In this document: positions 30,846-61,415 of the stretch, piece by piece
How positions within the stretch are numbered: position 1 is the stretch's first letter
Layout: every line of letters begins with the position of its first letter
Source of the DNA: Candidatus Thiothrix sulfatifontis
Lineage (GTDB): Bacteria > Pseudomonadota > Gammaproteobacteria > Thiotrichales > Thiotrichaceae
Direction: 5' to 3'
Length of the DNA: 64,000 nucleotides
NCBI GenBank assembly: GCA_022828425.1
Contig: CP094685.1
Location: forward strand, 3,016,046-3,080,045
Notes under the pieces: model-generated
Seen by the model: the letters and a program-made list of their open reading frames with translations, nothing else
Databases searched by the model: none
Told to the model about the DNA's origin: nothing
Translations under genes and position numbers: made by a program

Positions 30846-30892
30846 ATTGGTGGGCCTACTAGGACTCGAACCTAGAACCAAAGGATTATGAG
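30846..30892 (-). repeat. attL: partial tRNA(CAT) copy (tRNA positions 32-76 plus 2 nt)
   Basis: 47/47 identity to 61338-61384. No 5-prime tRNA half is present. Confidence 0.9.
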
Positions 30893-33212: not shown

Positions 33213-33620
33213 ATGTATTACCCAGTAGCCATAGAGCAAGGCGACGCTAACCACGCTTACGGCGTGATCGTTCCAGACATTCCGGGCTGTTTTTCAGCGG
33301 GGGATACCTTGGATGAAGCACTGATGCAGGCAGAGGATGCAATCCTATTGCAGCTTGAAGAGTATCTGGATAACGGGAAACCCTTCCCGCAACCCTCACC
33401 AATGGAAGCCTTGCGCCACCAGCAAGCCTATGAAGGGTTCATTTGGTCGATAACCAAAGTGGATGTGAGCAAACTATCAGGCAAGTCCACACGGGTGAAT
33501 ATCAGCCTGCCGGAACGTATCCTTCAACTCATAGACGCGGCGGCGGAACGTGACGGCGAAACCCGTTCAGGATTCATTGCTCGTGCTGCACTAGGGCATA
33601 TCCGGCAATCCGCACACTGA
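33213..33620 (+). CDS. hicB: HicB antitoxin (RHH C-terminus)
   Basis: 135 aa. HicB N-terminal fold motif YGVIVPDIPGCFSAGDTLDEAL and C-terminal RVNISLPERILQLIDAAAERDGETRSGFIA. Confidence 0.85.
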   Translation: MYYPVAIEQGDANHAYGVIVPDIPGCFSAGDTLDEALMQAEDAILLQLEEYLDNGKPFPQPSPMEALRHQQAYEGFIWSITKVDVSKLSGKSTRVNISLPERILQLIDAAAERDGETRSGFIARAALGHIRQSAH

Positions 33621-33639
33621 CACCAACGGAGGGCGCAAC

Positions 33640-34077
33640 ATGGGCGCAATTGCATACAAAACCGACTTTTACGAATGGACGCAAGAGCAAGCGCAACTCT
33701 TGAAAGAGCACCGTTTAGGTGAAATCGACTTGGCAAACCTGATAGAAGAGGTTGAAAGCATGGGCGCAAGTGAACGCAACGAATTCGCCCATCGTCTCGA
33801 AGTGCTGCTGATGCACATGCTCAAGTGGCAGTATCAAGTCGATTACCCCTATCGGCGTAGCTGGCAGCTAACCATTGTGGAGCAACGCAAACGACTAGCG
33901 GCAAGGCTGCGCAAAAGTCCAAGCCTAAAACACCATGCAGGTGAAGAGCTGGCAGACGCTTACGACGTGGCAAAGATCGGCGCGGAACGTGAAACGGGGC
34001 TACCTGAAAGCACCTTTCCAGAGGTTTGCCCGTGGAGCTTTGAGCAAGTGCTAGACCAAGAATTCATGCCAGCCTAA
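33640..34077 (+). CDS. DUF29 domain protein
   Basis: 145 aa. DFYEWTQEQAQLLKEHRLGEIDLANLIEEVESMGASERNEF...LLMHMLKWQYQ is typical of DUF29. Confidence 0.7.
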   Translation: MGAIAYKTDFYEWTQEQAQLLKEHRLGEIDLANLIEEVESMGASERNEFAHRLEVLLMHMLKWQYQVDYPYRRSWQLTIVEQRKRLAARLRKSPSLKHHAGEELADAYDVAKIGAERETGLPESTFPEVCPWSFEQVLDQEFMPA

Positions 34078-35237: not shown

Positions 35238-35312
35238 TTCTTTGTGGTTTTTTATAGGCTATTATTCTAAATATGTCTTAAGCCTATTTACATGAAACAC
35301 AACGGGGGAACT

Positions 35313-35864
35313 ATGGCACTGGTAGGATATGCACGGGTTAGCACACTTGACCAAGATCACACGGCGCAACTTGAACGCCTGACAGCGGCGGGATGTACCA
35401 AAGTATTCAGCGAGAAGAAAAGCGGCACAACTCAACAGGGCAGAGCCGCGCTTGATGAATGCCTTGGGTGGTTACGTGAAGGGGATACGCTGGTATTCAC
35501 CAAGATAGACCGGCTGGCACGTTCACAGCGTGACCTGCACAACATGGTTCACGACCTTGAAAAGCGCGGCGTGTCGATCATGGCGTTAGATCAAGCGATT
35601 GATACCCGCACGGCGGCGGGTAAGGCATTTCTCGGAATGCTGGCAGTATTCGCAGAGTTTGAAACCAACATCCGCAAAGAGCGGCAACTTGAAGGCATTG
35701 CTAAGGCAAAAACCGAAGGTGTCTACAAGGGGCGCAAGGCAACCGCCAAGGCAAAGCGGGCAGAGGTTGAAGCCTTGCTCACCCAAGGCATGACTAAGCC
35801 GAAGATTGCCGAAACCTTGGGGATCTCTGTTGCCAGCGTTTACAACGTACTGAAAGCCGCTTAA
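35313..35864 (+). CDS. Serine recombinase (resolvase/invertase, Hin/Pin-like)
   Basis: ATG 35313 (ORF track starts at 35292). MALVGYARVSTLDQ catalytic Ser motif and C-terminal HTH KPKIAETLGISVASVYNVLK. Confidence 0.85.
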   Translation: MALVGYARVSTLDQDHTAQLERLTAAGCTKVFSEKKSGTTQQGRAALDECLGWLREGDTLVFTKIDRLARSQRDLHNMVHDLEKRGVSIMALDQAIDTRTAAGKAFLGMLAVFAEFETNIRKERQLEGIAKAKTEGVYKGRKATAKAKRAEVEALLTQGMTKPKIAETLGISVASVYNVLKAA

Positions 35865-39133: not shown

Positions 39134-40243
39134 GTATCATAAGTGCATAACCCGTTAATCGAGACGGGGTGCGGCTTTCCTCATAAGGTCAGAGGCAAGA
39201 TGTGGTAAAAAGCATCCCGAAAAACCACTAACGGGAGAGCCTTATGGCATACGGACATCTTACCTCTGAAGAGAGGCATTATATCGAAACACGGCACAAG
39301 ATGGAGGATTCCACCACGGCAATAGCGTTAGCACTGGGACGCAGCCAATCGACGATTAGTCGTGAACTGGGTCGTAACCGAGGTCAACGTGGCTACCGTC
39401 ACAAGCAAGCGCACAACAATGCTCAGTGCCGCCATGCAGAGAAGCCGAAAGCGGTCAAGTTAACCCCGGCACTGACGCTCAGCATTGATAGCCTGCTGGA
39501 ACAGCAATGGAGTCCTGAACAGATCAGCGGCAGACTAAAAGGAGAAGGCAAGGTGTGTGTTTGCCATGAAGCCATTTACCAGCATGTCCTGAAGGACAAG
39601 CGTGCGGGCGGCAAGCTGTACCTGAACCTGCGCCGCCATGCGAAGACCTACCGTAAGCGTTATGGCAGCACCACGGGCAGTGTCAAAGGCATCCCCAACC
39701 GGGTGGACATTGACGAACGCCCAGAGGTGGTCAATCAGCGTGAACGGCTAGGCGACTGGGAAGCGGACACCATGATTGGCAAGGGACACCAAGGCGCATT
39801 AGTGACACTGGACGAACGCAAATCCAAGCTACGTCTGGCGTTCCCAGTAGCGAACAAGACTGCTGAAGCGGTGACGTGCAGCATTATCACCTTGCTGTCC
39901 GGCTTCAAGGAGTGGGTACACACGCTCACCTTCGATAACGGCAAAGAGTTTGCCAAACATGAGCAAGTTGCCCAAGCCATTGGGTGCAAAACGTATTTCG
40001 CCAAGCCCTACCATTCGTGGGAGCGCGGGCAAAATGAGAACGCCAATGGGCTGTTACGCCAATACTTCCCCAAAGCAATGGGATTGTTGGACGTGACGAC
40101 TCGACAGGTGTTGGAGGCTGTACATAAACTCAACAACAGACCAAGGAAATGTCTGGGGTTCAAGACACCTTACGAGGTGTTCCGCGAGCTATCCGGCATG
40201 GATGCTGAAAAGTTGGTGGGTTATGCACTTATTACTTGAATTC
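39128..40243 (+). mobile_element. IS30-family insertion sequence
   Basis: Terminal inverted repeats GAATTCGTATCATAAGTGCATAACC (39128-39152) and its partner at 40219-40243 (21/25 match). The transposase stop lies inside the right IR. Confidence 0.8.
39244..40239 (+). CDS. IS30-family transposase
   Basis: 331 aa. N-terminal HTH (LTSEERHYIE...GRSQSTISRELGRN) and DDE region (WEADTM...TFDNGKEF...NENANGLLRQYFPK). Confidence 0.9.
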   Translation: MAYGHLTSEERHYIETRHKMEDSTTAIALALGRSQSTISRELGRNRGQRGYRHKQAHNNAQCRHAEKPKAVKLTPALTLSIDSLLEQQWSPEQISGRLKGEGKVCVCHEAIYQHVLKDKRAGGKLYLNLRRHAKTYRKRYGSTTGSVKGIPNRVDIDERPEVVNQRERLGDWEADTMIGKGHQGALVTLDERKSKLRLAFPVANKTAEAVTCSIITLLSGFKEWVHTLTFDNGKEFAKHEQVAQAIGCKTYFAKPYHSWERGQNENANGLLRQYFPKAMGLLDVTTRQVLEAVHKLNNRPRKCLGFKTPYEVFRELSGMDAEKLVGYALIT

Positions 40244-42022: not shown

Positions 42023-42363
42023 ACGAACCAACATTATCACTAGTCAAGCTCGCACAAGAGCTTTGCAACAGCGGGCGCACCCCACAAGAGGCCGTCAGTG
42101 GTTTGCTGGTGGCAGCGCTCAATAATAAGAGCCTCGAATACCTGCAAGGTGCAGACGTTAATCAAGCCATTGCGGAACTGGAGCGCCGTTTCAGCGGCTA
42201 CCTGATCAAGCCATGGGAAAGCGCTCTACAAGAATTAGGCTATGCCCTCGAATGCATCCGCCAATTAGTAGCACTGGCAGAAGAGCACGAAACCGACGCG
42301 GCGGTGTGTGTACGCGTCGCGCAACGTTTCTTGAAAAAGTTTGAGGGCAACAACCATGGCTAA
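42019..42363 (+). CDS. Hypothetical protein (114 aa)
   Basis: Coupled ORF between the 67-aa gene and rep. Its stop overlaps the rep start. Confidence 0.4.
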   Translation: MNEPTLSLVKLAQELCNSGRTPQEAVSGLLVAALNNKSLEYLQGADVNQAIAELERRFSGYLIKPWESALQELGYALECIRQLVALAEEHETDAAVCVRVAQRFLKKFEGNNHG

Positions 42364-43639
42364 GCGTTTCGACCGTGACGAATGGGAAGATTCCCTCACC
42401 CGCATTAACCGCATTCTGGCAGAGAAACACGCCCGCGAAAGCGGCGCGTTTTCCGCTGTTTCTGGCGACGCTGGCGGCGCTGAATATCCCCCGTACTGTA
42501 ATACGGGGGGTTATGACGATTCCCACAAAATCAGCAAGTTACAAAAAACCGAAAAATCCTATGACCTGAATGTGACGGCTGTTGACTGGTTGCGCCTAAC
42601 CACTACCGACCTTGATGCATACGCGCAAACCATGGGCGATTTGCTGGCAGATGGCGGCCTTTTCAACCATGCCGATATGGATGTTAAATGGACAGATAAA
42701 GGAATGCACGGCTATGACTCTTCAGCCGCTATCCTGATATGGAAGGACAACGACTACCTGACAGTAGGCCACATTGCCAAGGCTGAATCAGGCCGCAATA
42801 AAGGCGGATTGCTGGAGCTAACCGGAACAGGTTGCAAAGTGCTGCAACTCGAACACCCTGCTTTGTGGCTGGAATTGTTCAACTTGTTGCAGTACCACGA
42901 CTGGCGAATTTCCCGCGTTGACGTGGCGTTAGACCTGCATGGCGAATACGCCCGCGAAATGGGCTACACCGTGCCAAGCCTGCTACTGCAAGCCAAGAAT
43001 AGCGGCCTGTTCCAGTCCGACCGCCTACGCAATCCCAACATGAAGCAATCATTTAGCATGGCGGGCGATTGGTCGGATTTAGCCATTGGCAACATTACCC
43101 CGCACACCTATGACCCGTTAGAGCATTGCCCGGCGGGTTTGACTGCCTATGTCGGCAACCGTAAAACAGCCGATGATTTTTTTCGGGTATACGAAAAAGG
43201 CAAAGAGCTATTAGGTGGCATGGCGGAACCCGAAAGCATAGATCGGGGCTGGATCCGCATTGAGCACGAAATGAGCCGCAAAGCCACCGGGCGCAATATC
43301 CCGCTTGAAGTCATGTTACGGCCTGATGCGTACTTTTGTGAAAGCCGATCAGGTGTGCGCACAATTCTCGATGCAGTCCGTGAACGCCAGTCATTAGAGG
43401 CCGCGCTTCAGTACCAGCGTGAACAATTCAAACGTGAGAAAGGCTTGCTGCTATTCAAAAAGCTGCATTGGGCGCGTCATTCTTACGGGCGCTTAGTGCG
43501 CACGCTGGTTGAACAAGGCATGGAAGCGAGCGAAATTGTCGATATGCTTTCTCGCATCAGCGGCTTAAAAGAATTCGTATTCGATCTGGCAGACCCACCA
43601 CAAGAATACGCGCGGTTTCGGGTAGAGGTGGCTGTATGA
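42356..43639 (+). CDS. Rolling-circle replication initiation protein, Rep_trans-like family
   Basis: ATG 42356. VDWLRLTT, HGYDSS, LELTGTGC, ISRVDVALD, GLTAYVGNRKTADDFFRVYEKGKE and WIRIEHEMSRKA fit the replication initiation factor (pT181 RepC/CTX RstA-type) pattern. Confidence 0.7.
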   Translation: MAKRFDRDEWEDSLTRINRILAEKHARESGAFSAVSGDAGGAEYPPYCNTGGYDDSHKISKLQKTEKSYDLNVTAVDWLRLTTTDLDAYAQTMGDLLADGGLFNHADMDVKWTDKGMHGYDSSAAILIWKDNDYLTVGHIAKAESGRNKGGLLELTGTGCKVLQLEHPALWLELFNLLQYHDWRISRVDVALDLHGEYAREMGYTVPSLLLQAKNSGLFQSDRLRNPNMKQSFSMAGDWSDLAIGNITPHTYDPLEHCPAGLTAYVGNRKTADDFFRVYEKGKELLGGMAEPESIDRGWIRIEHEMSRKATGRNIPLEVMLRPDAYFCESRSGVRTILDAVRERQSLEAALQYQREQFKREKGLLLFKKLHWARHSYGRLVRTLVEQGMEASEIVDMLSRISGLKEFVFDLADPPQEYARFRVEVAV

Positions 43640-43712: not shown

Positions 43713-43925
43713 ATGAAAACCGATTATTACATCAACCTAGATAACGAAGTTGTACAGGTAGAAATGCTCGAATGGCTCGAAGATGGTACGTACTTTGACG
43801 AAGATCAAAACGATGATGAAAGCATTCTTGTGGAACTGCCATGTTCTCGTTATTGCATTGGTGATGAAGATGGCGACGGCATCAGCGTATGGCTAAATGA
43901 GGATATGCAGGAGGTGATTCTGTGA
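43713..43925 (+). CDS. Hyper-acidic 70-aa protein
   Basis: 21 Asp/Glu versus 2 Lys/Arg. GGAGGTGAT RBS. 10 differences from the B copy at 57643-57855. Confidence 0.55.
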   Translation: MKTDYYINLDNEVVQVEMLEWLEDGTYFDEDQNDDESILVELPCSRYCIGDEDGDGISVWLNEDMQEVIL

Positions 43926-44305
43926 ATCCACTACTTTCACCCGCTGAGCAAACGCACCTCGACACCGTGCGCAACCGTCAGCACTTCCCTGATGACCTTG
44001 ACCGCACCCCGGCAAAAGCAGGCGTAAGCGATTTTGCCCACTGGTTAGCGCGTCTCGATTATCACGCGGCGTTTGTCCGTGTGGTGCAATTGCTGGTGCT
44101 GCTGAGCATCGCTTTCGCCATCTATAAGCTGGTGCTGATCTGGGCTGAATACCCCGGCGTCGCATTCCTGCCATTCCTCAATATGCACACCCCGCTGATG
44201 ATTTTCAGCGGATTATTCACAGCAACTTACATTCAGCATCGGGAATCCGAAGTTGTGGCAATTATCGCCCTGCTTTCCACGATGATGAATTCATTACTGG
44301 TTTAA
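43922..44305 (+). CDS. Small membrane protein (127 aa)
   Basis: GTG start after AGGAGG. 2-3 TM segments. N-terminus NPLLSPAEQTHLDTVR is homologous to 58067-58423 (NPLLTPREQAHVASVR). Confidence 0.5.
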   Translation: MNPLLSPAEQTHLDTVRNRQHFPDDLDRTPAKAGVSDFAHWLARLDYHAAFVRVVQLLVLLSIAFAIYKLVLIWAEYPGVAFLPFLNMHTPLMIFSGLFTATYIQHRESEVVAIIALLSTMMNSLLV

Positions 44306-44315
44306 GGAGAAGATC

Positions 44316-46014
44316 ATGAGACAACAGCAAAATCGAAGCCAAGAAAAAGAAATCATGGAAAAGCAATTAGAAGTACACAAAAAGCAAGACCGGCGCGGCG
44401 GTATGCTGCTGAGTTTGGGCGGTGTGTTGACCGCGTTAATGTACTTCATGTTCGAGAAGCACCTGTTTTTGGGTGAAGCAATCACGTGGTCGGCCTATTT
44501 CAACGAATGGCATTCGGCACTGGATTTTATCCTGATGTTTGTCATCGTGGTGATGAGCGCAATATTTTTGGCATGGGTAAAACATCATGCATACCTGCAC
44601 TTCGGTCTATACGGTTCCATCGGCCTGATCGTGTTCACCGTCATCGGGTTTGCCCTGTTCGCGGAATTCTTCAGTAGCAGCGCCAGCCAAGACACCAAAA
44701 GCCGGGTACTGCTGCAAAATGATCAAGCCTATCAGTCGACGCTCGCACCCGTCGCCAGCATCGCCCCTGCCCTGCCCACTGAGCAGCAACGCGGCGGCAA
44801 TTGCCAAGGCCGAACAGATGTATGCTCGCTGCATGGCGAACCTAGGCAAGCCGGGTTACAAGCATTGCGATGGCGACAAAGCCACCTTGAGCAGCCTCAA
44901 AGCCTCTGATGCAGCGGCGCTACAGGCAGCAAAAGAAATTGCAATACAGACCAACGCCGCCACCACCAAAATGAACCACGACCGTCAGGACAAGCTCAAA
45001 GCCGATTCATACAACGCGGTCATCGTCTCGATTGCGCAAGCGATCGGCTCACTCACTGTCACCGACTACAAGGACAACATCAAAGCCGCAACCGTGCTCA
45101 CCATGTTGATCGTGGCAATTGCTTTTGAAATCCTCCACCACTTCTTAGCTCACGCGAAAGAACGCGCTCAAAATGCCGTCTATGCAATTGAACTAGAACT
45201 AGCCAAGTACGAAGGCTCGGCACTGCCCCCAACATCCGACAACGTGACACCTGACAATGACGGCGCATTCAAACAGACCGGCGTCGGGTTCACTGCCAAC
45301 CTCGGCAAATCGCCAGCCGCGAACCACTCACCTACCCCGGCGGAAACGGACAAGCCCCTGTTCAAATACCAGCAAAAACCACCAGCCGATCACAGTGGTT
45401 TCGTTGGCTTCGTTAATACCAACAACCTGAAAAAATCCGCCAGTGACGAACGCCCATTCTACGGATTCAAGGATGCAAAAAAGCAATCAGCACTCGATGT
45501 GCTTAACCTTGCTCACGGATCCGAAGACCGGAAAACCCGCGAAAATCGCACCGTCAACAAAGAGCACTTGCCTACCCTGCCAGCCACTCAGAAAACAGGT
45601 TTGACCGGCATCAGAAATCCGGCATTAGGCAAAAATGAAGCGGTTTATGAGCTACCTCTCGCTGCTGAAAATCCACGTGTAATTACACGTGTACCGGATG
45701 GCGAAACCACGCTCGATAACGGCCTACAGGCGGCGCAAAAAGCACGTGTAATTACACGTGTACCCGACAACGAATCCACACTCGATAGCGACCTGTACGA
45801 AGAACTGAAAGCACGTGTAATTACACGTGAAATCAGTCCAACATTCAGACCTATCATTCAGTGGTTAGCGGGTAAGGCCGTCGGCAAAAACACCCAGCAT
45901 CGGCAACTGCTGGCAGCGGCGGCGCTCGACCGGATGCACCGTGAAAACGTGTTGACCCTGAACCCAGCGAACGACGGTTCGGGCATCAAAAAAGCCAAGT
46001 ACATTGTGGTCTAG
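44316..46014 (+). pseudogene. Large membrane-anchored protein, apparent +1 frameshift near 44778 (homologue of 58435-60744)
   Basis: ORFs 44316-44909 and 44650-46014 together are colinear with the intact B protein. The frame switch falls within about 44700-44790, with the single base A at 44778 the best-fitting point. Confidence 0.6.
45674..45829. repeat. Three perfect 18-bp palindromes CACGTGTAATTACACGTG at 69-bp period inside the coding sequence
   Basis: Copies at 45674-45691, 45743-45760 and 45812-45829. Each encodes RVITR within a 23-aa protein repeat. Confidence 0.9.
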
Positions 46015-46344: not shown

Positions 46345-46474
46345 ACCGCTCGACACTGACAAACCGCTTAATGATTCTATGCAGTTCGCGCTCGGACTGG
46401 TTGTGTCGATAATCGGGTTCACCATCGCCATGCTGTGATGTTTCCGCATCGCGAATCAAAACCTGATCAAGCAA

Positions 46475-46502
46475 AGCCGTGTCATCTGATGCGGCTTTTT
46501 TT
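46475..46502 (+). terminator. Intrinsic terminator near the element A right end
   Basis: AGCCG-N11-GCGGCT followed by T7. Same family as the terminators at 34079, 34641, 49532 and 61181. Confidence 0.65.
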
Positions 46503-46556
46503 GCCCATAGGGTAGGGCGGTAATCTCTTGCGGCTTGTCCCTGCAAAAATCGCAGG

Positions 46557-46576
46557 GATGACCCCAACATGACCCC
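46557..46576 (+). promoter_or_regulatory. Putative arm-type sites (GATGACCCC, CATGACCCC), element A right end
   Basis: Two motifs 11 bp apart, 57 bp before the tRNA-Leu-like core. Same geometry at 61264-61283 before the tRNA(CAT). Confidence 0.5.
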
Positions 46577-46633
46577 GACCAAAACGGGCAAAAATAATGC
46601 AGCGGGTAAAATGGCGTAACGCCTTGAAAGAAT

Positions 46634-46689
46634 TGGTGCCCGGAGCCGGACTCGAACCGGCACGCTGTTACCAGCGAGAGATTTTAAGG
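46634..46689 (-). other. 3-prime fragment of a tRNA-Leu(TAA)-like gene (anticodon loop to CCA), candidate attP core at the A/B junction
   Basis: Minus strand reads CCTTAAAATCTCTCGCTGGTAACAGCGTGCCGGTTCGAGTCCGGCTCCGGGCACCA: long variable arm, T arm, acceptor 3-prime strand. No 5-prime half is present. Confidence 0.75.
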
Positions 46690-46841: not shown

Positions 46842-46898
46842 GGCGGCGGTTTGCGCTACCATCAAAACCGAACCAAAACCAAACATTCAGGAATTAGC

Positions 46899-48180
46899 AT
46901 GGCTAAAAAAACGGCTGAAAAAATCAACTTCACCAAGACAGTGCTAGATGCGCTCGAACCACCCAGCAATGGGCGACGTTACGTATACGACTCAAAAGTG
47001 AATGGTTTGCTGCTGATGATCACCCCACCGGGTACAAAATCGTTTCAGGTGCGGAAACACCTCGAAGGCAGGGCGGCGCGTATCACCTTTGGGCGGTTCC
47101 CTGACATGACCGTGACGCAAGCGCGGGAAAAAGCCCTCGCAGAACTCTCGCTGATAGCCACCACCCGCCAAACCAGTTACCAGCAAAAGCAGGGCAGGGC
47201 AGAGGTACAGCAATTCGCCAACATGACATTGGGGAAAGTGTTCAAGGACTATCTCACCTCACACAAGAATCTGAAGCCCGCTACCATTGCCGATTATGAG
47301 CGTTCTATCCGCGTCGGCTTTCCCGACTGGGAGTCACTGCCGCTGAACAGCATCAGCCGCGATATGGTCGAAGAGCGTCACCGCGAACGCAGCCAACACT
47401 CCGAAGCACGGGCGAATAACGAAATGCGCGTGTTACGTAGCATTTTCAATTATGCCGCTGAGGAATACTTTGATGACAGCGGGCAACCGCTGATTAAGTC
47501 CAACCCGGTCAAGCGCCTCTCGCATAGCCGCGCATGGAACCGGGTAGACCGCAAACAGACCATTATCAAAAATGACGAACTCCCGATCTGGTACGAAGCC
47601 GTGAACTCACTCCCGGAATGGTACGGCGGCGCACTGGCTGAGAAGGCGCGGGTCTATTTCCTGCTAACCCTGTTCAGTGGCTACCGGCGCACGCGAGTCC
47701 AGCACCTTGCTGTGGGAAAATATCGACCTGATCAACAACACGATCAGGCTGGAAGACACCAAAAACCACCAAGCGCACACACTGCCGCTCACCACCTACA
47801 CCCGCGATCTGTTGACACAGTGGCAAGCCCGCAGCGGGCAGGGCAGCGGCTTAGTATTCCGGGCGACTGACAACACCTCGCCCCTGTCCAGCGTGGAAGA
47901 AGTGATTAAAGCCATCCGTGCCAGGACAAACATTCAATGGGCAATGCACGACCTGCGGCGCACGTTCGCCACCACTGCCGAAAACATCGGTGTTCGCGGT
48001 TACACCCTGAAGCGCCTGATCAACCACAAGACCGGCGCGGCGGACGTGACCGGCGGTTACATCGTGACCGACGTGGAAAGCCTCAGAGAACCCATGCAAA
48101 CCATCACCGACAAGCTCTTAAGCCTGACATCCGGTAAACTATCCGCATCCAAGACCGCACCGGCGGCAATCAATACCTGA
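46899..48180 (+). pseudogene. int: P4-type tyrosine integrase with a 1-nt insertion (about 47694)
   Basis: ORFs 46851-47870 and 47677-48180 are together colinear with intA. B reads GCGCACGCGAGTCC where A reads GCGCACGGAGTCC. Confidence 0.75.
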
Positions 48181-50644: not shown

Positions 50645-50869
50645 TTATAAAAAGCCGCGTTTTCTGTTCGTGTCGGGGTGTGAAACCATTTTATTAGCAG
50701 TATTGCCCCGGAATTTCATGGATTCGGTTTTTCCGTCTACCAAGTGCTTTATGTCGGTAAGCAATTCTATGGCGGATTTCTCAGAGCAGCGGGTATGCAT
50801 CTGGATGATCTGCAACAGTTCAGTTTCTTGGTTGTTAAAGGTGTGTGTTGTCATTTTGGAAGATGGCAC
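50645..50869 (-). CDS. Small hypothetical protein (74 aa), copy 1 of a tandem duplication
   Basis: GTG 50869 after GGAG (an ATG 15 nt downstream is also possible). Predicted helical. No recognised domain. Confidence 0.4.
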   Translation of the reverse strand: MPSSKMTTHTFNNQETELLQIIQMHTRCSEKSAIELLTDIKHLVDGKTESMKFRGNTANKMVSHPDTNRKRGFL

Positions 50870-51149
50870 GTTATATGCTCCTGTTTTGGTTGAGTTGACA
50901 GTTAAAAAAAGCCACAGTCTTTCTGTCCGTGTCGGGGTGTGAAACCATTTTATTAGCAGTATTGCCTCGGAATTTCATGGATTCGGTTTTTCCGTCTACC
51001 AAGTGCTTTATGTCGGTAAGCAATTCTATGGCGGATTTCTCAGAGCAGCGGGTATGCATCTGGATGATCTGCAACAGTTCAGTTTCTTGGTTGTTAAAGG
51101 TGTGTGTTGTCATTTTGGAAGATGGCACGTTATATGCTCCTGTTTTGGT
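50649..51149. repeat. Tandem direct duplication, ~243-bp units with 259-bp period
   Basis: 50672-50890 matches 50931-51149, and I saw only one mismatch by eye (CCCCGG versus CCTCGG). Confidence 0.85.
50871..51128 (-). CDS. Small hypothetical protein (85 aa), copy 2 of a tandem duplication
   Basis: Identical to copy 1 over the first 67 aa except N68D, then a different tail. A perfect TATAAT lies upstream on the minus strand at 51160-51165. Confidence 0.4.
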   Translation of the reverse strand: MPSSKMTTHTFNNQETELLQIIQMHTRCSEKSAIELLTDIKHLVDGKTESMKFRGNTANKMVSHPDTDRKTVAFFNCQLNQNRSI

Positions 51150-51196
51150 TAAGGTTTTTATTATATCGCTTATTGTTAATAATGGATATGAATCTA

Positions 51197-55128: not shown

Positions 55129-55331
55129 GTCAGCAAATTATCGCCCTATTAGCGCAACTGAAAGGAAGTGGCGCGTCATCGTTGAATGTATTCGCCAAGT
55201 GCGCCACCGACGATTACAGCACCGATCTACGCAAGCAAGACATGCTCACCACCATCATGCTGATCTTGGATGAACTCGATGAAATCCGCACCGGCCTGAA
55301 ACGCGAAACGGAGGGTAGCACTCATGGCTAA
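55125..55331 (+). CDS. Hypothetical protein (68 aa)
   Basis: Coupled ORF. Its stop overlaps the rep start exactly as in element A (..CATGGCTAAG..). Confidence 0.4.
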   Translation: MSQQIIALLAQLKGSGASSLNVFAKCATDDYSTDLRKQDMLTTIMLILDELDEIRTGLKRETEGSTHG

Positions 55332-57519
55332 GCAAAACGTCAATGGCTATACGCTCGACTGCGACAAGCTGGACACTGCCACCATCGGTTACAAGATCAT
55401 GGGCTTGCCCTTCGTTATGCGCGATCTGGTAGCGTCGCAATACTCCAACCTGTACCGCACCACCCTCACCACCTATCCCGAAACCGTCGGTGATGACAAT
55501 CCGGTGATTCAACGCCTCGCCAAAATCGAAGCGCGTACCCGTGCGAATACCTACCTCGCCAGCGTCATGCAGCAAGTCAAAGATCACGTCGGCAAAGAAA
55601 CCTATCTCGAAACCCACGACCGCCTCAAACTGCAATTTCTGATGCTGTGGGAACAGCACGCGCCAGATTCTATTCTGCTGGACAAAGAGCAAGACGGAGC
55701 GCTCGACGACGAATCAGCCAAGGAACTGAAGCGCCAACGACTGGCACGTCGTAACGCGATCAAAGCATTTTTAGCGGCTGAGAACATCACCTACCCCGGC
55801 GGCACGAACGACGATAAAAACGGCAATGGCAGCCGCTACAATCGCCTTGTGAATCGCAAATGGTTGCAAGATCAAGTGCGGGTTCGCGGTGGGCGTAGCA
55901 CCTACGAACGCGCCAGACAAGCCGGGCGCATCGGCAAACACAAACAAGCCGAACTCTACATAACCGAAGAGGATTATCAAAAGTACCTAGACAGCAAAGC
56001 CAGTGCCATGCAGTACATGAAGGACACCGTTTTCATCTCGCACGAAGATGACGAAGTGGAAATGCTCGATGTGTACAACAGCACCACCGCCAACCCTCGC
56101 AACCGCAAAACCCAACTCATGACTCAAGTAGCGGGCATGGTCAAATATGCCGACAAACACGGCTACGCTTTCGTCATGATCACCCCCACGGCGGCAAGTG
56201 AGCACCACCCCGCCCCACGGCTGGAAGATGGCGAAATCCGCGTGAATCCGCGTTATCTCGCTGTAAAACCCAACTGGACAGCCAAAAAAACCCACGAACA
56301 CCTTAACGCCATTGCTGAGCGCGTATTCAGTGCGCTTGATCGTGAAGGCGTGGAATTTTACGGATTCAAAGGCATTGAGGCACACAAGGACGGCACACCT
56401 CACCATCACTATGGATTTTTCTATAAGGACGTACCCGGCAATAAGCGCAAAGTTCACAGCGCGTTTGCATGGTATTTTCAAGAACTCGACAAGGTAGTCA
56501 GTGACGGCGTGGTGTTGGGCGACGTTGGCAAATACAAGCACCGTCGCAAAATGTCCCGCGAACAGCAAGCCGCGATCAAGCAGCATTTGCACGACACCCA
56601 GCCCGGCGCGTTAAAAGTTCGCGTCACCTTCGTGTATCCAGATACGGCAATAAGCAAGTTAAGCACTTACATCCTAAAAAGCCTGCTGAACTACGTGGTC
56701 AAGGACGTTGCTGATAAAGATGCAGACGGTGATGCAATCGACCTCACCGAAAAGCAGCAAGAGGCGGCGGCGCGTCAACAGCGCATTGCAGCATGGGCGT
56801 CGCTGAACGGCATCCGCCAATTCTCGACCATCCGCACCGGGGCAAGCATGGGTGTCTATCAGGAATTGCGGCGCATCCACTCCCCTGTGGAAGGCTCGAC
56901 GCAACTCGAACAAGAGCGCCTCGCTTGCGTGGGCAGTTACGGCACGGAACAGCACGAAGACCCGGAAACCCGCCTCAATGCCGATTTTTGCCGTTACATG
57001 GAATTACGCCGGAATCCGCTCGACGATGCAGAACCCGTAGAACTCTGGAAAGTGACCGACACCGAAAGCGACAACATCACCATTAAATTCAATGAATTCA
57101 GTGATGAAGTTGGGCGCGTACAGGGCGTGCGCTGCAACGAAGATGCAAACACCCTCCTCGAAATCAATACCCGCCCCATCAGATGGCGTGCAATCAACCT
57201 GCCCATGCTGATTGATGACCTCGCAGAAACGGAGTTACCCCCAACCCAACCGGGCGACCTGATCGACCCCGATTACCGCGCAGCGGTTACGAAAGTATGG
57301 TCGGACATCGTGACCACCGCTCGCACTGACAAAACGGTTCACGAACTGGCGCGTGGTGTCTATCACCACCCACTCTCCCCCGCCGTAGGCGTCTCTTTTC
57401 GTGATCGGGCGAAGCCCATCACCACTTGGAAGATTAGAAATAATCCCACGGTTTCCGGCGAACGCTCAAAAAATGGGCAAATGCAGCAAGGAGGCGATCA
57501 TGTTCAGGTCACAGCCTAA
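55324..57519 (+). CDS. HUH replication endonuclease, phage P2 gpA-like
   Basis: 731 aa. GYAFVMITPT...YGFKGIEAHKDGTPHHHYGFFY parallels the P2 A-protein pattern ..TLT...GfRvaEPHhDGtPHwH.. . Tyr-containing STYILKSLLNYVVKD lies downstream. Confidence 0.65.
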   Translation: MAKQNVNGYTLDCDKLDTATIGYKIMGLPFVMRDLVASQYSNLYRTTLTTYPETVGDDNPVIQRLAKIEARTRANTYLASVMQQVKDHVGKETYLETHDRLKLQFLMLWEQHAPDSILLDKEQDGALDDESAKELKRQRLARRNAIKAFLAAENITYPGGTNDDKNGNGSRYNRLVNRKWLQDQVRVRGGRSTYERARQAGRIGKHKQAELYITEEDYQKYLDSKASAMQYMKDTVFISHEDDEVEMLDVYNSTTANPRNRKTQLMTQVAGMVKYADKHGYAFVMITPTAASEHHPAPRLEDGEIRVNPRYLAVKPNWTAKKTHEHLNAIAERVFSALDREGVEFYGFKGIEAHKDGTPHHHYGFFYKDVPGNKRKVHSAFAWYFQELDKVVSDGVVLGDVGKYKHRRKMSREQQAAIKQHLHDTQPGALKVRVTFVYPDTAISKLSTYILKSLLNYVVKDVADKDADGDAIDLTEKQQEAAARQQRIAAWASLNGIRQFSTIRTGASMGVYQELRRIHSPVEGSTQLEQERLACVGSYGTEQHEDPETRLNADFCRYMELRRNPLDDAEPVELWKVTDTESDNITIKFNEFSDEVGRVQGVRCNEDANTLLEINTRPIRWRAINLPMLIDDLAETELPPTQPGDLIDPDYRAAVTKVWSDIVTTARTDKTVHELARGVYHHPLSPAVGVSFRDRAKPITTWKIRNNPTVSGERSKNGQMQQGGDHVQVTA

Positions 57520-57855: not shown

Positions 57856-58070
57856 GCAATAAATACACCATCGAAAGCCGTTATGCCAGTGACCTAATGA
57901 TAGTTGTCCGTAATCTTGAAGGGGTTTCAAGCGGTTACGATATTGTTCCGGCGCATTGGGGGCAAGCGTACCGTTTCACCAATCGCAAGCAGGCGGAAAT
58001 GCTCCTGTTCACCCTGAAAAAGAAGCACGACCTACACGGCGGTTTCAAGATTCATGAGGTGCAGTCATGA
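57852..58070 (+). CDS. Hypothetical protein (72 aa), B specific
   Basis: Coupled ORF inserted between the acidic protein and the membrane protein. No counterpart in A. Confidence 0.4.
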   Translation: MSNKYTIESRYASDLMIVVRNLEGVSSGYDIVPAHWGQAYRFTNRKQAEMLLFTLKKKHDLHGGFKIHEVQS

Positions 58071-58423
58071 GCAACCCACTACTGACACCCCGCGAACAAG
58101 CGCATGTTGCCTCTGTGAGAGCGTTACAGCACTTTGACACCCCTACGCTATCCGATAGCACCCCGAACAACTGGGAACGCCTCCACGCACTCATTCCGTG
58201 GATGGCCTTTCTATTTGCCGTGATCGTGTGGGCAATGTTCCTGCTGATTCCGACGGCATTCGGCCTGCATTACGCGGGCATGTTCCCCGCTGCAAACAAT
58301 TGGCTATACGTGCTAATGGGCTTGACGCTCTGCATGGCCTGTTTCGTCGCTGCACAAGTCAAACACGGCGCACGGGCTATCCTGTTCGCATTTGCCGTAC
58401 TCCTTTTAAGCTATTGGTTCTGA
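58067..58423 (+). CDS. Small membrane protein (118 aa)
   Basis: 3 TM segments. N-terminus homologous to 43922-44305. Confidence 0.5.
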   Translation: MSNPLLTPREQAHVASVRALQHFDTPTLSDSTPNNWERLHALIPWMAFLFAVIVWAMFLLIPTAFGLHYAGMFPAANNWLYVLMGLTLCMACFVAAQVKHGARAILFAFAVLLLSYWF

Positions 58424-58434
58424 GGTAAAAGATT

Positions 58435-60744
58435 ATGAAAAACGACAACAACTTCAACGCGGGTTTGGCCTACAGCGATTACAAAACCCGCAAACTGTTC
58501 TACATGCTGGCGGCCTTTGTCGCTTTTGCCATGAGTTCCTACTTTGTGGTCGGCTACCTTGCCGGGCATTTGCGCGTATTAGAATGGGATGGCTCGCAGT
58601 GGATGAATGGCTTAGTTGCCATTGGCATTACAGCGGTTATGACCGGCTACCAATTTATCCTTTACGGCGCGGGCAACGTCGCAGGCGGCAAAAAAGCGAC
58701 CATTCTAGCGGTCGTGGTGGCGGTGTCCTTCTCAATGCTCTCTGAGGTCGGGCAAGGCATGGAACGCGACAACATTCGCATGGAAACCAAAAGCCAAGAA
58801 TCCCCGACCTACAAGGCGATTGTGGGCGCGATTAGTACCCCTGCCGGTGCAAACCCCTATTCGGCTGATATGCAAGCCGCTGAAGTGAAGTTAGCGCAAT
58901 GCGAAACCCGCTTAGCGCAAGGCAAGGAAAAGCACTGTGAGGGCAGCAAAGCGCGTGTGGAGGCCGTCAATAAAATGATAGCCAACCATGCAGCGACCAG
59001 CCAACAGCAAGCCCTAGCCCTCGCTGCAACCGCTAAAACCATGGAAAAGGACGAAAGCAACTACCATCCCCTAGTGAACCTGTTACGCGAAACCTTCGGC
59101 GCATCCGGTACAGTTGGCTCGTTTCTGGTTTCCCTCACCCTGATAGCCTTTTTCGAGTACGCGTTTCACTATCTGGGTGGGCAGTTCGCGGCGGCGCGTG
59201 AATACCTCATGGCACATGGCTATGACGTTACCCGCAACCTACGCCAACCACCGCGCAAATTTGATGGCAGCATCAGCACCTACTCCGATAAATCCGAATC
59301 CGCACCCATGGCAGCGCTTAACGGAGCCGCGAACTCTGCCAAACAAACCGTGGGCGAATACGCAGCGAAAATTGAGGAAGGTTTAAAGGCATCCCCTGAA
59401 GTCATCGCCACCGAGTATGCGCGTGCGCAACATGCCCGCGAACAATCAGCCGCAATGATGGGCGACAAATTGCAGGCCGTTGGGGACAAGATCGAAGCCG
59501 CGATTAACCCGCAAGTCAGCTTTTTAAAACTGCTGATTGCCGAAAATCAAGCGCGTGTTAATCACGGCATGGAAGCAAATCATGAGAATGTGAGAAATAC
59601 GATTGAATATGTATTAAAACGTCACCAACAAACAACTGGCAACGATACCAGTCATGCCGACGTAAACAAACTGACTGATTTAGTCATGAAGCACTTGAAG
59701 CCGTCAAAACCTGAAGTTGCTGAACGTCATCACCTGTATTGCACGCTGGCAAATGGGCGAAAAATGGATAAAGTTTTTAAAGCACACGAAGCCGATGCAG
59801 CGCTCAAAGAATGGCAGCGTTTAAATAAAACTGGCATTGGTGAAGATGGCAACCCCATAACCATGCTGGGATTACATCAAACCCATTTTGAAACTGAAAA
59901 GGAGGCTGAAGCGTTTGAAAAAAAGATCGAAGCCGAGAATCTAAAATGGCAATCCGACGCGCCAGTGATTAAATCGGTAACAGGCTTTAAACAATCAGCC
60001 GATCAAGCCGCGAATGTCAGCCGATTGTATCAGGCAGAAACGGCAAAGCATGAAGCGGGCGAAGTATTTAACCAATCCCCTACCCCGGCAATCAAGCGCC
60101 AGTCCGTGGCGGAAACTATCCATGCGCTAGTGGATGCGGTTAAAAAATCCGGCGCAACAACTGAGGCCGATATTCAGGCGGCGGTATTCGATGGCTATTC
60201 AAAGCTCTTTAATCCGGCTGACTTGGATGATGGCGACTTGCTCAAAGTAGCGGCTAAGATTGCCAAGAGTTCGGCATCTGCTACCCCTGCCCCGGTCATG
60301 CCATTGCAGCAACGCACTGGTGCAACTGGCCTGCACAACCCCGCGTTAGGCACGGCTGAAGCGGTCTACCCGCTACCATTGCCAACTGCCCTACACGCGC
60401 GTGTAGAGGGGTTACACGCACCCAACACGCAACCCTTGCCAACTGCCCTACACGCGCGTGTAGAGGGGTTACACGCACCCAACACGCAACCCGTGTTACA
60501 CGCACCACACGCGCGTGTGGGGGGTGAAGTAGGGCGGTTTGAAGTGGGCAGTATCGAAGCCTATGAAGCGGCGGATTCTGCCAATATAGGAAGTCGTGTA
60601 GGTTGCCCACAGTGTGGTGCTGAGTTCGTTAAGCGCAATCAACAACACCGTTTTTGCTGCAAAGATCACCGTTTTGCATGGCACAACGAACGCGACCCGA
60701 AACGGCAAGAGTTCATTAACAGTCGCAAGCCGAAAGCGATATAA
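58435..60744 (+). CDS. Large membrane-anchored protein (769 aa) with coiled-coil middle, 19-aa repeats and C-terminal Cys-rich zinc-ribbon-like tail
   Basis: N-terminal TM cluster. Region TG-TG..NPALG..EAVY-LPL is shared with the A homologue. C-terminus CPQCGAEFVKRNQQHRFCCKDHRFAWHNE. Confidence 0.55.
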   Translation: MKNDNNFNAGLAYSDYKTRKLFYMLAAFVAFAMSSYFVVGYLAGHLRVLEWDGSQWMNGLVAIGITAVMTGYQFILYGAGNVAGGKKATILAVVVAVSFSMLSEVGQGMERDNIRMETKSQESPTYKAIVGAISTPAGANPYSADMQAAEVKLAQCETRLAQGKEKHCEGSKARVEAVNKMIANHAATSQQQALALAATAKTMEKDESNYHPLVNLLRETFGASGTVGSFLVSLTLIAFFEYAFHYLGGQFAAAREYLMAHGYDVTRNLRQPPRKFDGSISTYSDKSESAPMAALNGAANSAKQTVGEYAAKIEEGLKASPEVIATEYARAQHAREQSAAMMGDKLQAVGDKIEAAINPQVSFLKLLIAENQARVNHGMEANHENVRNTIEYVLKRHQQTTGNDTSHADVNKLTDLVMKHLKPSKPEVAERHHLYCTLANGRKMDKVFKAHEADAALKEWQRLNKTGIGEDGNPITMLGLHQTHFETEKEAEAFEKKIEAENLKWQSDAPVIKSVTGFKQSADQAANVSRLYQAETAKHEAGEVFNQSPTPAIKRQSVAETIHALVDAVKKSGATTEADIQAAVFDGYSKLFNPADLDDGDLLKVAAKIAKSSASATPAPVMPLQQRTGATGLHNPALGTAEAVYPLPLPTALHARVEGLHAPNTQPLPTALHARVEGLHAPNTQPVLHAPHARVGGEVGRFEVGSIEAYEAADSANIGSRVGCPQCGAEFVKRNQQHRFCCKDHRFAWHNERDPKRQEFINSRKPKAI
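60379..60520. repeat. 2.5 x 57-bp in-frame repeats carrying three perfect 16-bp palindromes (CTACACGCGCGTGTAG x2, CCACACGCGCGTGTGG)
   Basis: Palindromes at 60391-60406, 60448-60463 and 60505-60520. Additional ACACG motifs occur in each unit. Confidence 0.9.
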
Positions 60745-60752
60745 TTGATCAA

Positions 60753-60859: not shown

Positions 60860-61156
60860 TTGTATCAAGACTGGAAGCAATGGGCACGGGCGGTTTATGC
60901 CATTCTCATTTTATTAATGGTGGCGTGGCTGATAAAACCTGAGCAACTAATACAGTTTGCCTCTTGGCAAGAGATAAACAATTTAGGTGAGAGCATAGGT
61001 TTTGTTCAAGTCGTTATGTTTACCGTATCCGCTGGGTTGATATTCCCAAAAGCAAAGAAATTTGAGGAGGGTTTTTGTAACGTTGGTGATGATTTTTGGC
61101 AGTTCATTATCGGAATGTTACTAGCAGGGGTTGCATGGTTCATCGCCATACTCTAG
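60860..61156 (+). CDS. Small membrane protein (98 aa)
   Basis: TTG start after GAGG. 3 TM segments. Full-length version of 46138-46344. Confidence 0.45.
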   Translation: MYQDWKQWARAVYAILILLMVAWLIKPEQLIQFASWQEINNLGESIGFVQVVMFTVSAGLIFPKAKKFEEGFCNVGDDFWQFIIGMLLAGVAWFIAIL

Positions 61157-61180
61157 GGCGCATCAAAACCTGATCAGCAA

Positions 61181-61209
61181 AGCCGTGTCATCTGATGCGG
61201 CTTTTTTTT
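61181..61209 (+). terminator. Intrinsic terminator near the element B right end
   Basis: AGCCG-N11-GCGGCT followed by T8. Confidence 0.65.
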
Positions 61210-61263
61210 GACCATAGGGTAGGGTGCTAATCCCTTGCGACTTGTCCCGGCAAAAATCGCAGG

Positions 61264-61283
61264 GATGACCCTATCATGACCCC
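61264..61283 (+). promoter_or_regulatory. Putative arm-type sites (GATGACCCT, CATGACCCC), element B right end
   Basis: Same spacing and same distance to the tRNA 3-prime end as 46557-46576. Confidence 0.5.
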
Positions 61284-61337
61284 GACCAAAACGGTGGGGA
61301 ATCATCGGGCGGCAAAACAACGCAACACCTTGATAAA

Positions 61338-61384
61338 ATTGGTGGGCCTACTAGGACTCGAACCTAGAACCAAAGGATTATGAG
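61338..61384 (-). repeat. attR: direct-repeat copy within the intact tRNA(CAT)
   Basis: Identical to 30846-30892. Confidence 0.9.
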
Positions 61385-61415
61385 TCCTCTGCGCTAACCA
61401 TTGCGCCATAGGCCC
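61340..61415 (-). tRNA. tRNA with anticodon CAT: probably tRNA-Ile2 (ileX-like), alternatively elongator tRNA-Met
   Basis: 76-nt cloverleaf: acceptor GGGCCTA/TAGGCCC, D arm GCGC-AATGGTTA-GCGC, anticodon arm GAGGA-CTCATAA-TCCTT, T arm CTAGG-TTCGAGT-CCTAG, encoded CCA. G1-C72 excludes an initiator. Confidence 0.9.

Follow-up and report, generated by a model that had tools for sequence, protein, structure and literature searches.

The stretch of DNA considered here (64,000 nucleotides of contig CP094685.1 of Candidatus Thiothrix sulfatifontis, in the following the window) contains two tandem integrative elements, A and B, each encoding a large membrane-anchored protein, and within the coding sequence of each of these two proteins (genes A and B) lies an array of three perfect palindromes that is translated in frame. 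The arrays are selected as DNA, beyond their peptide-coding role. Furthermore, judging from the comparison of related sequences, the array and the C-terminal domain of the same gene are one specificity cassette, swapped as a unit between backbones, and the arrays are likely to be cis docking sites for the C-terminal DNA-binding tail of the very protein in whose gene they lie, by which the DNA of the element would be tethered at the membrane.

The palindrome arrays

44316–46014, + strand: gene A, large membrane-anchored protein of the A-type subfamily, split into open reading frames (ORFs) 44316–44909 and 44650–46014
58435–60744, + strand: gene B, large membrane-anchored protein of 769 amino acids (aa), 100% identical to NCBI L3K52_15380
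45674–45829, no strand assigned: array A, three perfect 18-bp palindromes CACGTGTAATTACACGTG at 45674–45691, 45743–45760 and 45812–45829, with a 69-bp period
60391–60520, no strand assigned: array B, three perfect 16-bp palindromes at 60391–60406, 60448–60463 and 60505–60520, with core ACACGCGCGTGT and a 57-bp period

Both arrays were re-located exactly in the window, with the unit lengths, copy numbers and spacings given in a preliminary description of the sequence. The 18-mer CACGTGTAATTACACGTG is found only as these three copies in the 64-kb window and, when up to two mismatches are allowed, gives 0 matches in 100 dinucleotide shuffles. The consensus of array B, C[T/C]ACACGCGCGTGT[A/G]G, which takes the form CTACACGCGCGTGTAG at 60391 and 60448 and CCACACGCGCGTGTGG at 60505, is likewise unique in the window, with a mean of 0.08 matches in shuffles and no shuffle containing three or more. 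Array A is read within ORF 44650–46014 as (A/P)RVITR(V/E) in each 23-aa repeat, its copies 1 and 2 being extended by an overlapping 10-bp palindrome, TACACGTGTA; array B is read within ORF 58435–60744 as (L/P)HARV(E/G) in each 19-aa repeat, and the identity of its copies 1 and 2 at 50/57 positions indicates that their duplication is recent.

Besides the dyads, array B contains five lone ACACGC(A) half-sites (at 60414, 60425, 60471, 60482 and 60498), so that the extra ACACG motifs already pointed out in B are real; they are used in two frames, namely CAC GCA (His-Ala, HA) and AAC ACG CAA (Asn-Thr-Gln, NTQ). The half-site said to be shared by the two arrays needs correction: ACACG is common to A and B, but TACACG is not, the outer T being missing in the third B copy and, counting window array B and the related loci L013 and L014, in 4 of 8 B-type copies. 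The occurrence of ACACG in both arrays may perhaps be a coincidence, since two unrelated folds would read it.

Arrays and C-terminal domains are exchanged together

Within the family of related proteins, the motif co-varies with the C-terminal domain of its own gene, as is evident when the identities are calculated region by region:

P0087 and P0049: N-terminus 89% and middle 84% identical; arrays and tails unrelated
P0087 and P0057: N-terminus 29% identical; tails 76% identical, palindromes identical
P0001 and P0003, from the same genome: N-terminus and middle 90–95% identical; cassettes unrelated
P0099 and P0034: N-terminus and middle 94% identical; cassettes unrelated
P0099 and P0059: N-terminus and middle 30% identical; tails 83% identical, same array

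The same pattern of cassette exchange is found between P0001 and P0034, and elements that share one genome carry different cassettes. The core ACACGCGCGTGT, on the other hand, is unchanged in the company of three unrelated replicases, i.e. Phage_GPA in window element B, Toprim_3 with DUF3987 in L013 and DUF927 in L014. In each element, including the complete circular L014, the full motif is confined to the array, with no copy elsewhere and none near promoters. Iterons or an origin cognate to the different Rep proteins, as initially envisaged, are not in keeping with a B core that is the same with three types of replicase and a motif that follows the C-terminal domain. The linkage to the tail fits instead another suggestion of the preliminary description, that the palindromes are sites for a dimeric binder with the C-terminal domains among the candidates, the binding itself being putative.

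A reader other than the protein's own tail, such as the Rep protein, the AlpA-like helix–turn–helix (HTH) protein, an integrase or resolvase, an Arc-like protein or a host factor, has to be weighed against this evidence. Elements A and B share, together with ACACG, near-identical AlpA-like (86% DNA identity), 238/253-aa and integrase genes; moreover, three spaced dyads recall the res-type or arm-type sites of recombinases, and a resolvase is encoded in element A and in L014. However, the B motif is constant not only across the three replicase types, but also in combination with a resolvase, a tyrosine recombinase or neither of them, and the motif changes completely between backbones that are 89–95% identical whenever the C-terminal domain changes. 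The AlpA-like protein, which had been put forward as a candidate, is about the same in A and B, where the full sites differ, and this argues against it as the reader. No copies of the motif are found near other genes or promoters. Recombinase sites of the res or arm type were rejected, as the motif does not follow the recombinase, and so were operators near promoters, as no extra copies of the motif occur elsewhere in the elements. A different reader is, on the whole, improbable.

Selection on the arrays as DNA

The DNA of 21 family genes was compared, most of it obtained through exact-protein look-ups, while scans of genomes, metagenomes and viral contigs gave 13 loci. When only codons for identical residues are considered, 0/11 differ between window gene A and L018 inside the palindromes versus 37/75 outside (p = 0.001); the corresponding figures are 0/10 versus 98/168 for L019 and L018 (p = 2e-4) and 1/14 versus 219/548 for window gene B and L013 (p = 0.009). 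Synonymous changes that break the dyad while the peptide is kept, named in the preliminary description as a refuting outcome, are, thus, not what the orthologues display. In L018 both 18-mers are exactly kept between unrelated spacers and, among the copies of array A, the palindromes are 18/18 identical versus 34/51 for the spacers (Fisher p = 0.0025).

The half-sites are also maintained independently of the reading frame. L022, with an A-type tail, carries CGTGTAC-A-GTACACG three times, encoding PCTVHA, with the TACACG half-site in another frame, and L016, also with an A-type tail, contains the same half-site in other arrangements (CCGTGTACGTACACGG, GATACACGTGTATC and TACACGggcaCGTGTA). In L004, AACCCTATGCACAGGGTT occurs twice in two frames, read as KPYAQGL and NPMHRVL; the fourth copy of the 16-mer of L002 is in a different frame; and in L001 GGTGAAGCAGC is a direct repeat with an 11-bp period. 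A compensatory change is observed between L002 and L025, where AATGAaCGCGcTCATT of the former is AATGTaCGCGcACATT in the latter, the right-hand change being synonymous. In 12/20 genes the linker contains more perfect inverted repeat than is obtained by synonymous resampling of the same peptide (P ≤ 0.03). With synonymous sites frozen, palindromes identical where spacers differ, and the half-site found in other frames, the proposed overlay of a DNA-level constraint on coding is borne out.

A compensatory change is equally expected of a stem, and the palindromes might act as hairpins or cruciforms, either in a single-stranded DNA rolling-circle origin, a single-strand origin or the nick site of an oriT, or in mRNA processing, pausing or attenuation. 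Each palindrome can indeed fold as a 6–7-bp stem with a 4-nt loop (−8.9 to −10 kcal/mol), and both window elements encode HUH rolling-circle-type Reps. However, the gain in folding over shuffles is modest (z −1.4 to −2.3) and is absent for the DYQKG-type array of L001 (z −0.29); the lone half-sites and the variety of arrangements, some overlapping and others spaced by 2, 3 or 4 bp, are expected of a protein half-site and not of one stem; an A/C mismatch is conserved in one dyad in two subfamilies; the same motif accompanies replicases that are not of the rolling-circle type; and no Rfam family was matched, tRNA being the only Rfam match. Hairpins have, therefore, little chance of being the function that is conserved.

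In L019 (2983–3156) the middle A-type copy has lost ATTACACGT, apparently by deletion between CGTGTA direct repeats, and a lone half-site is left; such a putative event shows how arrays gain and lose copies. That this copy lost one half through a CGTGTA-repeat deletion, that the copy number varies from 2 to 6 between orthologues and that cassette junctions lie near the arrays would all agree with what is mainly a device for generating diversity, in which the repeats, rather than serving as binding sites, would be prone to recombination or slippage and would thereby diversify the linker or favour the exchange of cassettes. Such a device is highly improbable, as it leaves the perfect dyads, the frozen synonymous sites, the frame-independent half-sites and the strict pairing of motif and domain unexplained, and changes in copy number are also normal for iteron or centromere arrays. 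Finally, a plain tandem peptide repeat in a flexible linker, whose palindromes would be a by-product of codon choice and recent duplication with no function as DNA, finds some comfort in the in-frame tandem duplication of the arrays, in the recent duplication of B copies 1 and 2 and in synonymous codon resampling, where about 5% of trials bring back an arm of 9 bp or more, but it is already largely refuted, and very improbable, given that synonymous freezing is limited to the palindromes, that these stay 18/18 while spacers diverge, that one DNA half-site encodes different peptides in different frames, that a period of 11 bp, as seen in direct repeats, is impossible for a repeated peptide, and that a compensatory change is found (L002/L025).

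The large membrane-anchored proteins

45775–46011, + strand: predicted winged-helix C-terminal domain of A (79 aa), AlphaFold2 (AF2) pLDDT 93.2, H-H-H-beta-wing-beta topology
60538–60741, + strand: zinc-ribbon C-terminal domain of B (CPQCG...HRFCCKDHRFAWHN), matching PHROGs without assigned function (E = 4e-8) and, weakly, DUF7564
45589–45660, + strand: conserved peptide QKTGLTGIRNPALGKNEAVYELPL immediately 5′ of array A, conserved at the protein level
60310–60381, + strand: the same conserved peptide in B, QRTGATGLHNPALGTAEAVYPLPL

Protein B consists, in this order, of four transmembrane (TM) helices with a loop of about 110 aa containing two invariant Cys residues, a variable middle part, the conserved peptide, the repeat linker and the zinc-ribbon tail. 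Genes A and B, described at the outset as homologous, are distant homologues: TM3 and the Cys loop are 24% identical over 91 aa (E = 2e-6), and the 30-aa peptide just 5′ of the arrays is 60% identical (E = 1e-8). Gene A is frameshifted in the assembly by an extra G (+1) at 44781 with respect to intact orthologues of 561–565 aa; this frameshift and the truncated integrase of element B may be signs of decaying elements or, alternatively, indel errors made in assembling the metagenome-assembled genome.

In total, 133 homologues were found, every named one of which is from Thiothrix or Thiolinea, and a profile of the N-terminal domain gave 224 clusters at 50% identity. Their common layout comprises an N-terminal domain of four TM helices with a helical loop of about 110 aa, in which two cysteines are invariant, then a variable middle, a hypervariable linker of short repeats and a C-terminal domain of about 80–90 aa, for which two kinds are found, the zinc ribbon (B type) and an alpha/beta domain with the terminal motif ...NPxYxxGxxKxKYLLA (A type and others). 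Neither the N-terminal nor the middle parts have a relative in Pfam (with strict and lax thresholds), among PHROGs or among PDB sequences, and a tblastn search of a phage collection gave no match. For the N-terminal 280 aa, AF2 gave a model of moderate quality (pLDDT 73), whose Foldseek matches (TM helices of ABC transporters, TM-score about 0.2) are meaningless. The large proteins are, as far as their sequences indicate, an unannotated family of proteins with a predicted membrane anchor, in which the Cys loop is probably periplasmic.

As for the tails, all the top Foldseek matches of the A domain are winged-helix DNA binders (GntR, PadR, MCM and H1-type), although weak (best E = 0.15, TM-scores 0.4–0.6), while a profile search against PDB sequences gave no significant match and BFVD no useful neighbour. 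The third A palindrome, which encodes ARVITRE, falls within helix 1 of this domain, indicating that array A grew by duplication of the domain boundary. The zinc ribbon of B is 82–90% conserved in orthologues with the same motif.

The peptide upstream of the linker, with family consensus LGTxExQLxLP, resembles those binding the beta clamp. In the form TGxTGhxNPxLGTxEExYxLPL it is found in about one-third of the family members, and clamp-like versions at the same position (QLSLP, QLPLP, QLSMPL, QLDLF, QFDMF) are present in 24/241 proteins versus 2.4 in shuffles, with QLDLF in P0186 and QFDMF in P0187. The consensus for beta-clamp binding is QL[SD]LF, and Hda has QLSLPL (PMC12309361). The family peptide agrees with this published consensus; the copies in the window, VYELPL and VYPLPL, are degenerate and have no Gln. 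In members of the Thiolinea type, a similar clamp-like motif is found at the extreme C-terminus instead.

The elements and their gene neighbourhood

30846–61384, no strand assigned: tandem pair of integrative elements, each of about 15 kb, A at about 30.9–46.65 kb and B at about 46.66–61.34 kb
42341–43639, + strand: replicase of element A, Rep_trans (Pfam)
55324–57519, + strand: replicase of element B, Phage_GPA (Pfam)
43922–44305, + strand: small 3-TM partner ORF directly 5′ of gene A, with homologues at the same place in all loci examined
58067–58423, + strand: small 3-TM partner ORF directly 5′ of gene B, with homologues at the same place in all loci examined
60860–61156, + strand: small membrane ORF 3′ of gene B, kept in L018, L019 and L020
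60802–60841, no strand assigned: AT-rich stretch (GC content 0.23), 58 bp past the stop codon of gene B and in the top 0.6% of the element's 40-bp windows by AT content

The pair of elements sits at a tRNA(CAT) gene (61340–61415, − strand) beside rpoD and is bounded by a 47-bp att-like direct repeat (30846–30892, equal to 61338–61384); the internal junction at 46451–46658 resembles 61158–61364 (83% identity). Each element contains, in order, an integrase with a ProQ/FinO protein, cargo, the AlpA-like HTH protein, the replicase, two small ORFs and the array gene, which in element B is followed by the extra small membrane ORF. The conservation of small multi-TM ORFs flanking the large gene in all related loci suggests a membrane complex. 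The cargo of element A (39244–40239, 33213–34077, 35292–35864) includes an IS30-like transposase (HTH_38 and rve), a HicB-like antitoxin, a DUF29 protein and a serine resolvase. In element B, the integrase ORF (46851–48180, 339 aa) is without the catalytic domain, and a 259-bp unit is tandemly duplicated (97% identity) at 50645–51150, in a stretch of low GC content.

No relaxase is encoded in the window elements, and no terminase, capsid or portal genes were found in the elements. Nucleoside triphosphatase (NTPase), capsid, type IV secretion system (T4SS) and Par genes were absent from the window ORFs scanned and from the precomputed Pfam lists of L013–L016, L024 and L025, in which several small ORFs are unannotated. 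A literature search on Thiothrix mobile elements gave nothing relevant.

The contig of L014 repeats itself after 9,693 bp, which indicates a free circular element of 9.7 kb; it carries a B-type cassette, the DUF927 replicase, a resolvase and Arc and AlpA-like genes, with no integrase. At L016 (106–1656), a member with an A-like cassette adjoins a gene for a ResT/TelK protelomerase, a hint that some elements of the family may be linear replicons with hairpin ends.

In most related loci, too, the large gene is followed by such a stretch, which ranks with the most AT-rich 40-bp windows of its locus (L001, L014, L016, L018, L024 and L025; GC content 0.15–0.30). Located 250–350 bp away from the array and overlapping an intergenic region of promoter-like character, with a sigma-70-like promoter (11/12 match) at 60716–60745 in the window, it may serve in unwinding or be no more than part of a promoter.

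A proposed mechanism and the points against it

In the mechanism proposed here, the sites would be written into the linker-coding part of the gene and read by the domain encoded immediately 3′ of them, i.e. the winged helix in A and the zinc ribbon in B. The protein would be held in the inner membrane by its N-terminal 4-TM domain and would expose to the cytoplasm a tail formed, in this order, by the clamp-like peptide, the flexible site-encoding linker and the DNA-binding domain. Dimers of this domain would bind each palindrome, with lone half-sites providing added monomer contacts, and the single site cluster of the element would in this way be held at the membrane. The cassette, by differing between co-resident elements, might be a determinant of self-recognition or incompatibility. 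The most likely use of such a system would lie in marking the DNA of the element itself and tethering it, for replisome organization or segregation. A tether is favoured by the membrane anchor, the small membrane partners, the lack of NTPase, capsid, T4SS and Par genes, the differing cassettes, the AT-rich stretch and the clamp-like peptide. As to the specific role of the docking sites, that of an origin or replisome organizer may be put forward tentatively, partition or retention is possible though doubtful, packaging or transfer is rather unlikely and transcriptional control quite improbable.

Several points weigh against docking of the tail on its own sites. Binding is inferred; the Foldseek matches of the winged helix are all weak (E of at least 0.15, TM-scores 0.4–0.6), and the zinc ribbon of B has no characterized relative. 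The presence of ACACG in both A and B, despite the unrelated folds, could point to a different reader shared by the two. The DYQKG and NERAHS subfamilies have imperfect dyads or direct repeats only, so that a dimer on a palindrome would not be universal. The synonymous tests use few codons (10–14 each), and copies and orthologues are not fully independent. The clamp-like peptide is degenerate in the window and present in only part of the family and, finally, as gene A is frameshifted, array A may currently lack its reader.

A more speculative, and on present evidence unlikely, extension of the tether is a way of handling DNA without NTPases, in which an inner-membrane protein would read a private ‘barcode’ in its own gene, fix the element to the membrane and then, aided by small membrane proteins as partners and perhaps by the beta clamp, either segregate the DNA (as in the Jacob replicon model) or load it selectively into a membrane-bounded, capsid-less transfer vehicle. 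Such a lifestyle would be in keeping with the conserved block of membrane proteins, with elements that lack genes for a capsid, a T4SS or Par proteins, and with the existence of circular, integrated and protelomerase-linked forms.

Comparison with known systems

That cis sites lie within the gene of their reader is a known principle, under which the Thiothrix arrays would be best filed; what appears to be new is that the protein family is membrane-anchored and highly modular. In lambdoid phages, sites and cognate domain differ between related elements. In ori-lambda, the gene of the lambda O protein contains the sites for O as part of its translated frame; they are (imperfect) inverted repeats of about 19 bp, with extra sites adding residues outside the DNA-binding part and an AT-rich region nearby (PMC7466680). 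As in O/ori-lambda, the Thiothrix dyads are in frame and form a linker adjoining the DNA-binding domain of their own gene, by which they would be bound. Unlike O, however, the Thiothrix protein is membrane-anchored, has no sequence relation to O or to a known initiator (no Pfam, PHROG or PDB match) and would have its reader domain at the C-terminus rather than at the N-terminus, while the AT-rich stretch is 250–350 bp off, beyond the stop codon, instead of abutting the sites. With separate replicases of several kinds in the elements, a role as initiator is not required, unlike in the case of O.

In the partition systems SopB/sopC of the F plasmid and ParB/parS, each of the tandem repeat units contains a palindrome of about 16 bp, and the dimeric binder is encoded next to or around the sites, parS being found inside spo0J in Bacillus subtilis. 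There is one cluster per replicon, and specificity differs among co-resident replicons, which avoids incompatibility. Similarly, the Thiothrix palindromes form one cluster per element, inside the gene of the presumed binder, but neither a ParB-family domain nor a ParA, ParM or TubZ NTPase was detected in the window ORFs and Pfam lists specified above, and tethering would be direct, through the TM domain of the protein itself.

Single features of the proposed protein have precedents. Protein p16.7 of phi29 is a membrane anchor for replicating phage DNA, with one TM helix and non-specific DNA binding; TrfA is a clamp-binding plasmid initiator that binds its origin site-specifically, is not an integral membrane protein and has its iterons outside its gene. 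The combination of a membrane anchor with a DNA-binding part recalls the former, and that of a short clamp-binding peptide with an origin binder the latter, although no homology of the Thiothrix protein to either was detected. TraB of Streptomyces is a membrane-associated FtsK-like ATPase with a C-terminal winged helix, which selects DNA for transfer through the 8-bp direct repeats of clt, these coinciding with, or lying close to, the 3′ terminus of its gene. A membrane protein with a (predicted) C-terminal winged helix and repeats toward the 3′ end of its own gene is also found in Thiothrix, but without an NTPase domain. In P1, P22 and SPP1, the pac sites within the terS/pacA genes place a recognition cluster inside the coding sequence of a DNA-handling protein; the Thiothrix elements differ in having no terminase, capsid or portal genes, and in that the protein is a membrane protein. 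Homology to any of the systems compared here was not detected, and the Thiothrix protein belongs to none of these families.

Significance

The arrays represent a natural overlapping code, in which a protein linker would double as an array of DNA sites for the adjacent domain of the same protein, and this code recurs in a family that comprises at least 224 clusters (50% identity) and dozens of differing pairs of site and domain. The family offers, therefore, a ready set of winged-helix/site and zinc-ribbon/site pairs in which the evolution of DNA-recognition specificity could be followed and from which orthogonal tethering parts could be drawn. These unannotated, membrane-anchored, putative DNA binders are a conserved core of the integrative, plasmid and possibly linear elements of Thiothrix and, if tethering holds true, they would provide these elements with a mechanism of partition or of replication organization that does without a dedicated NTPase.

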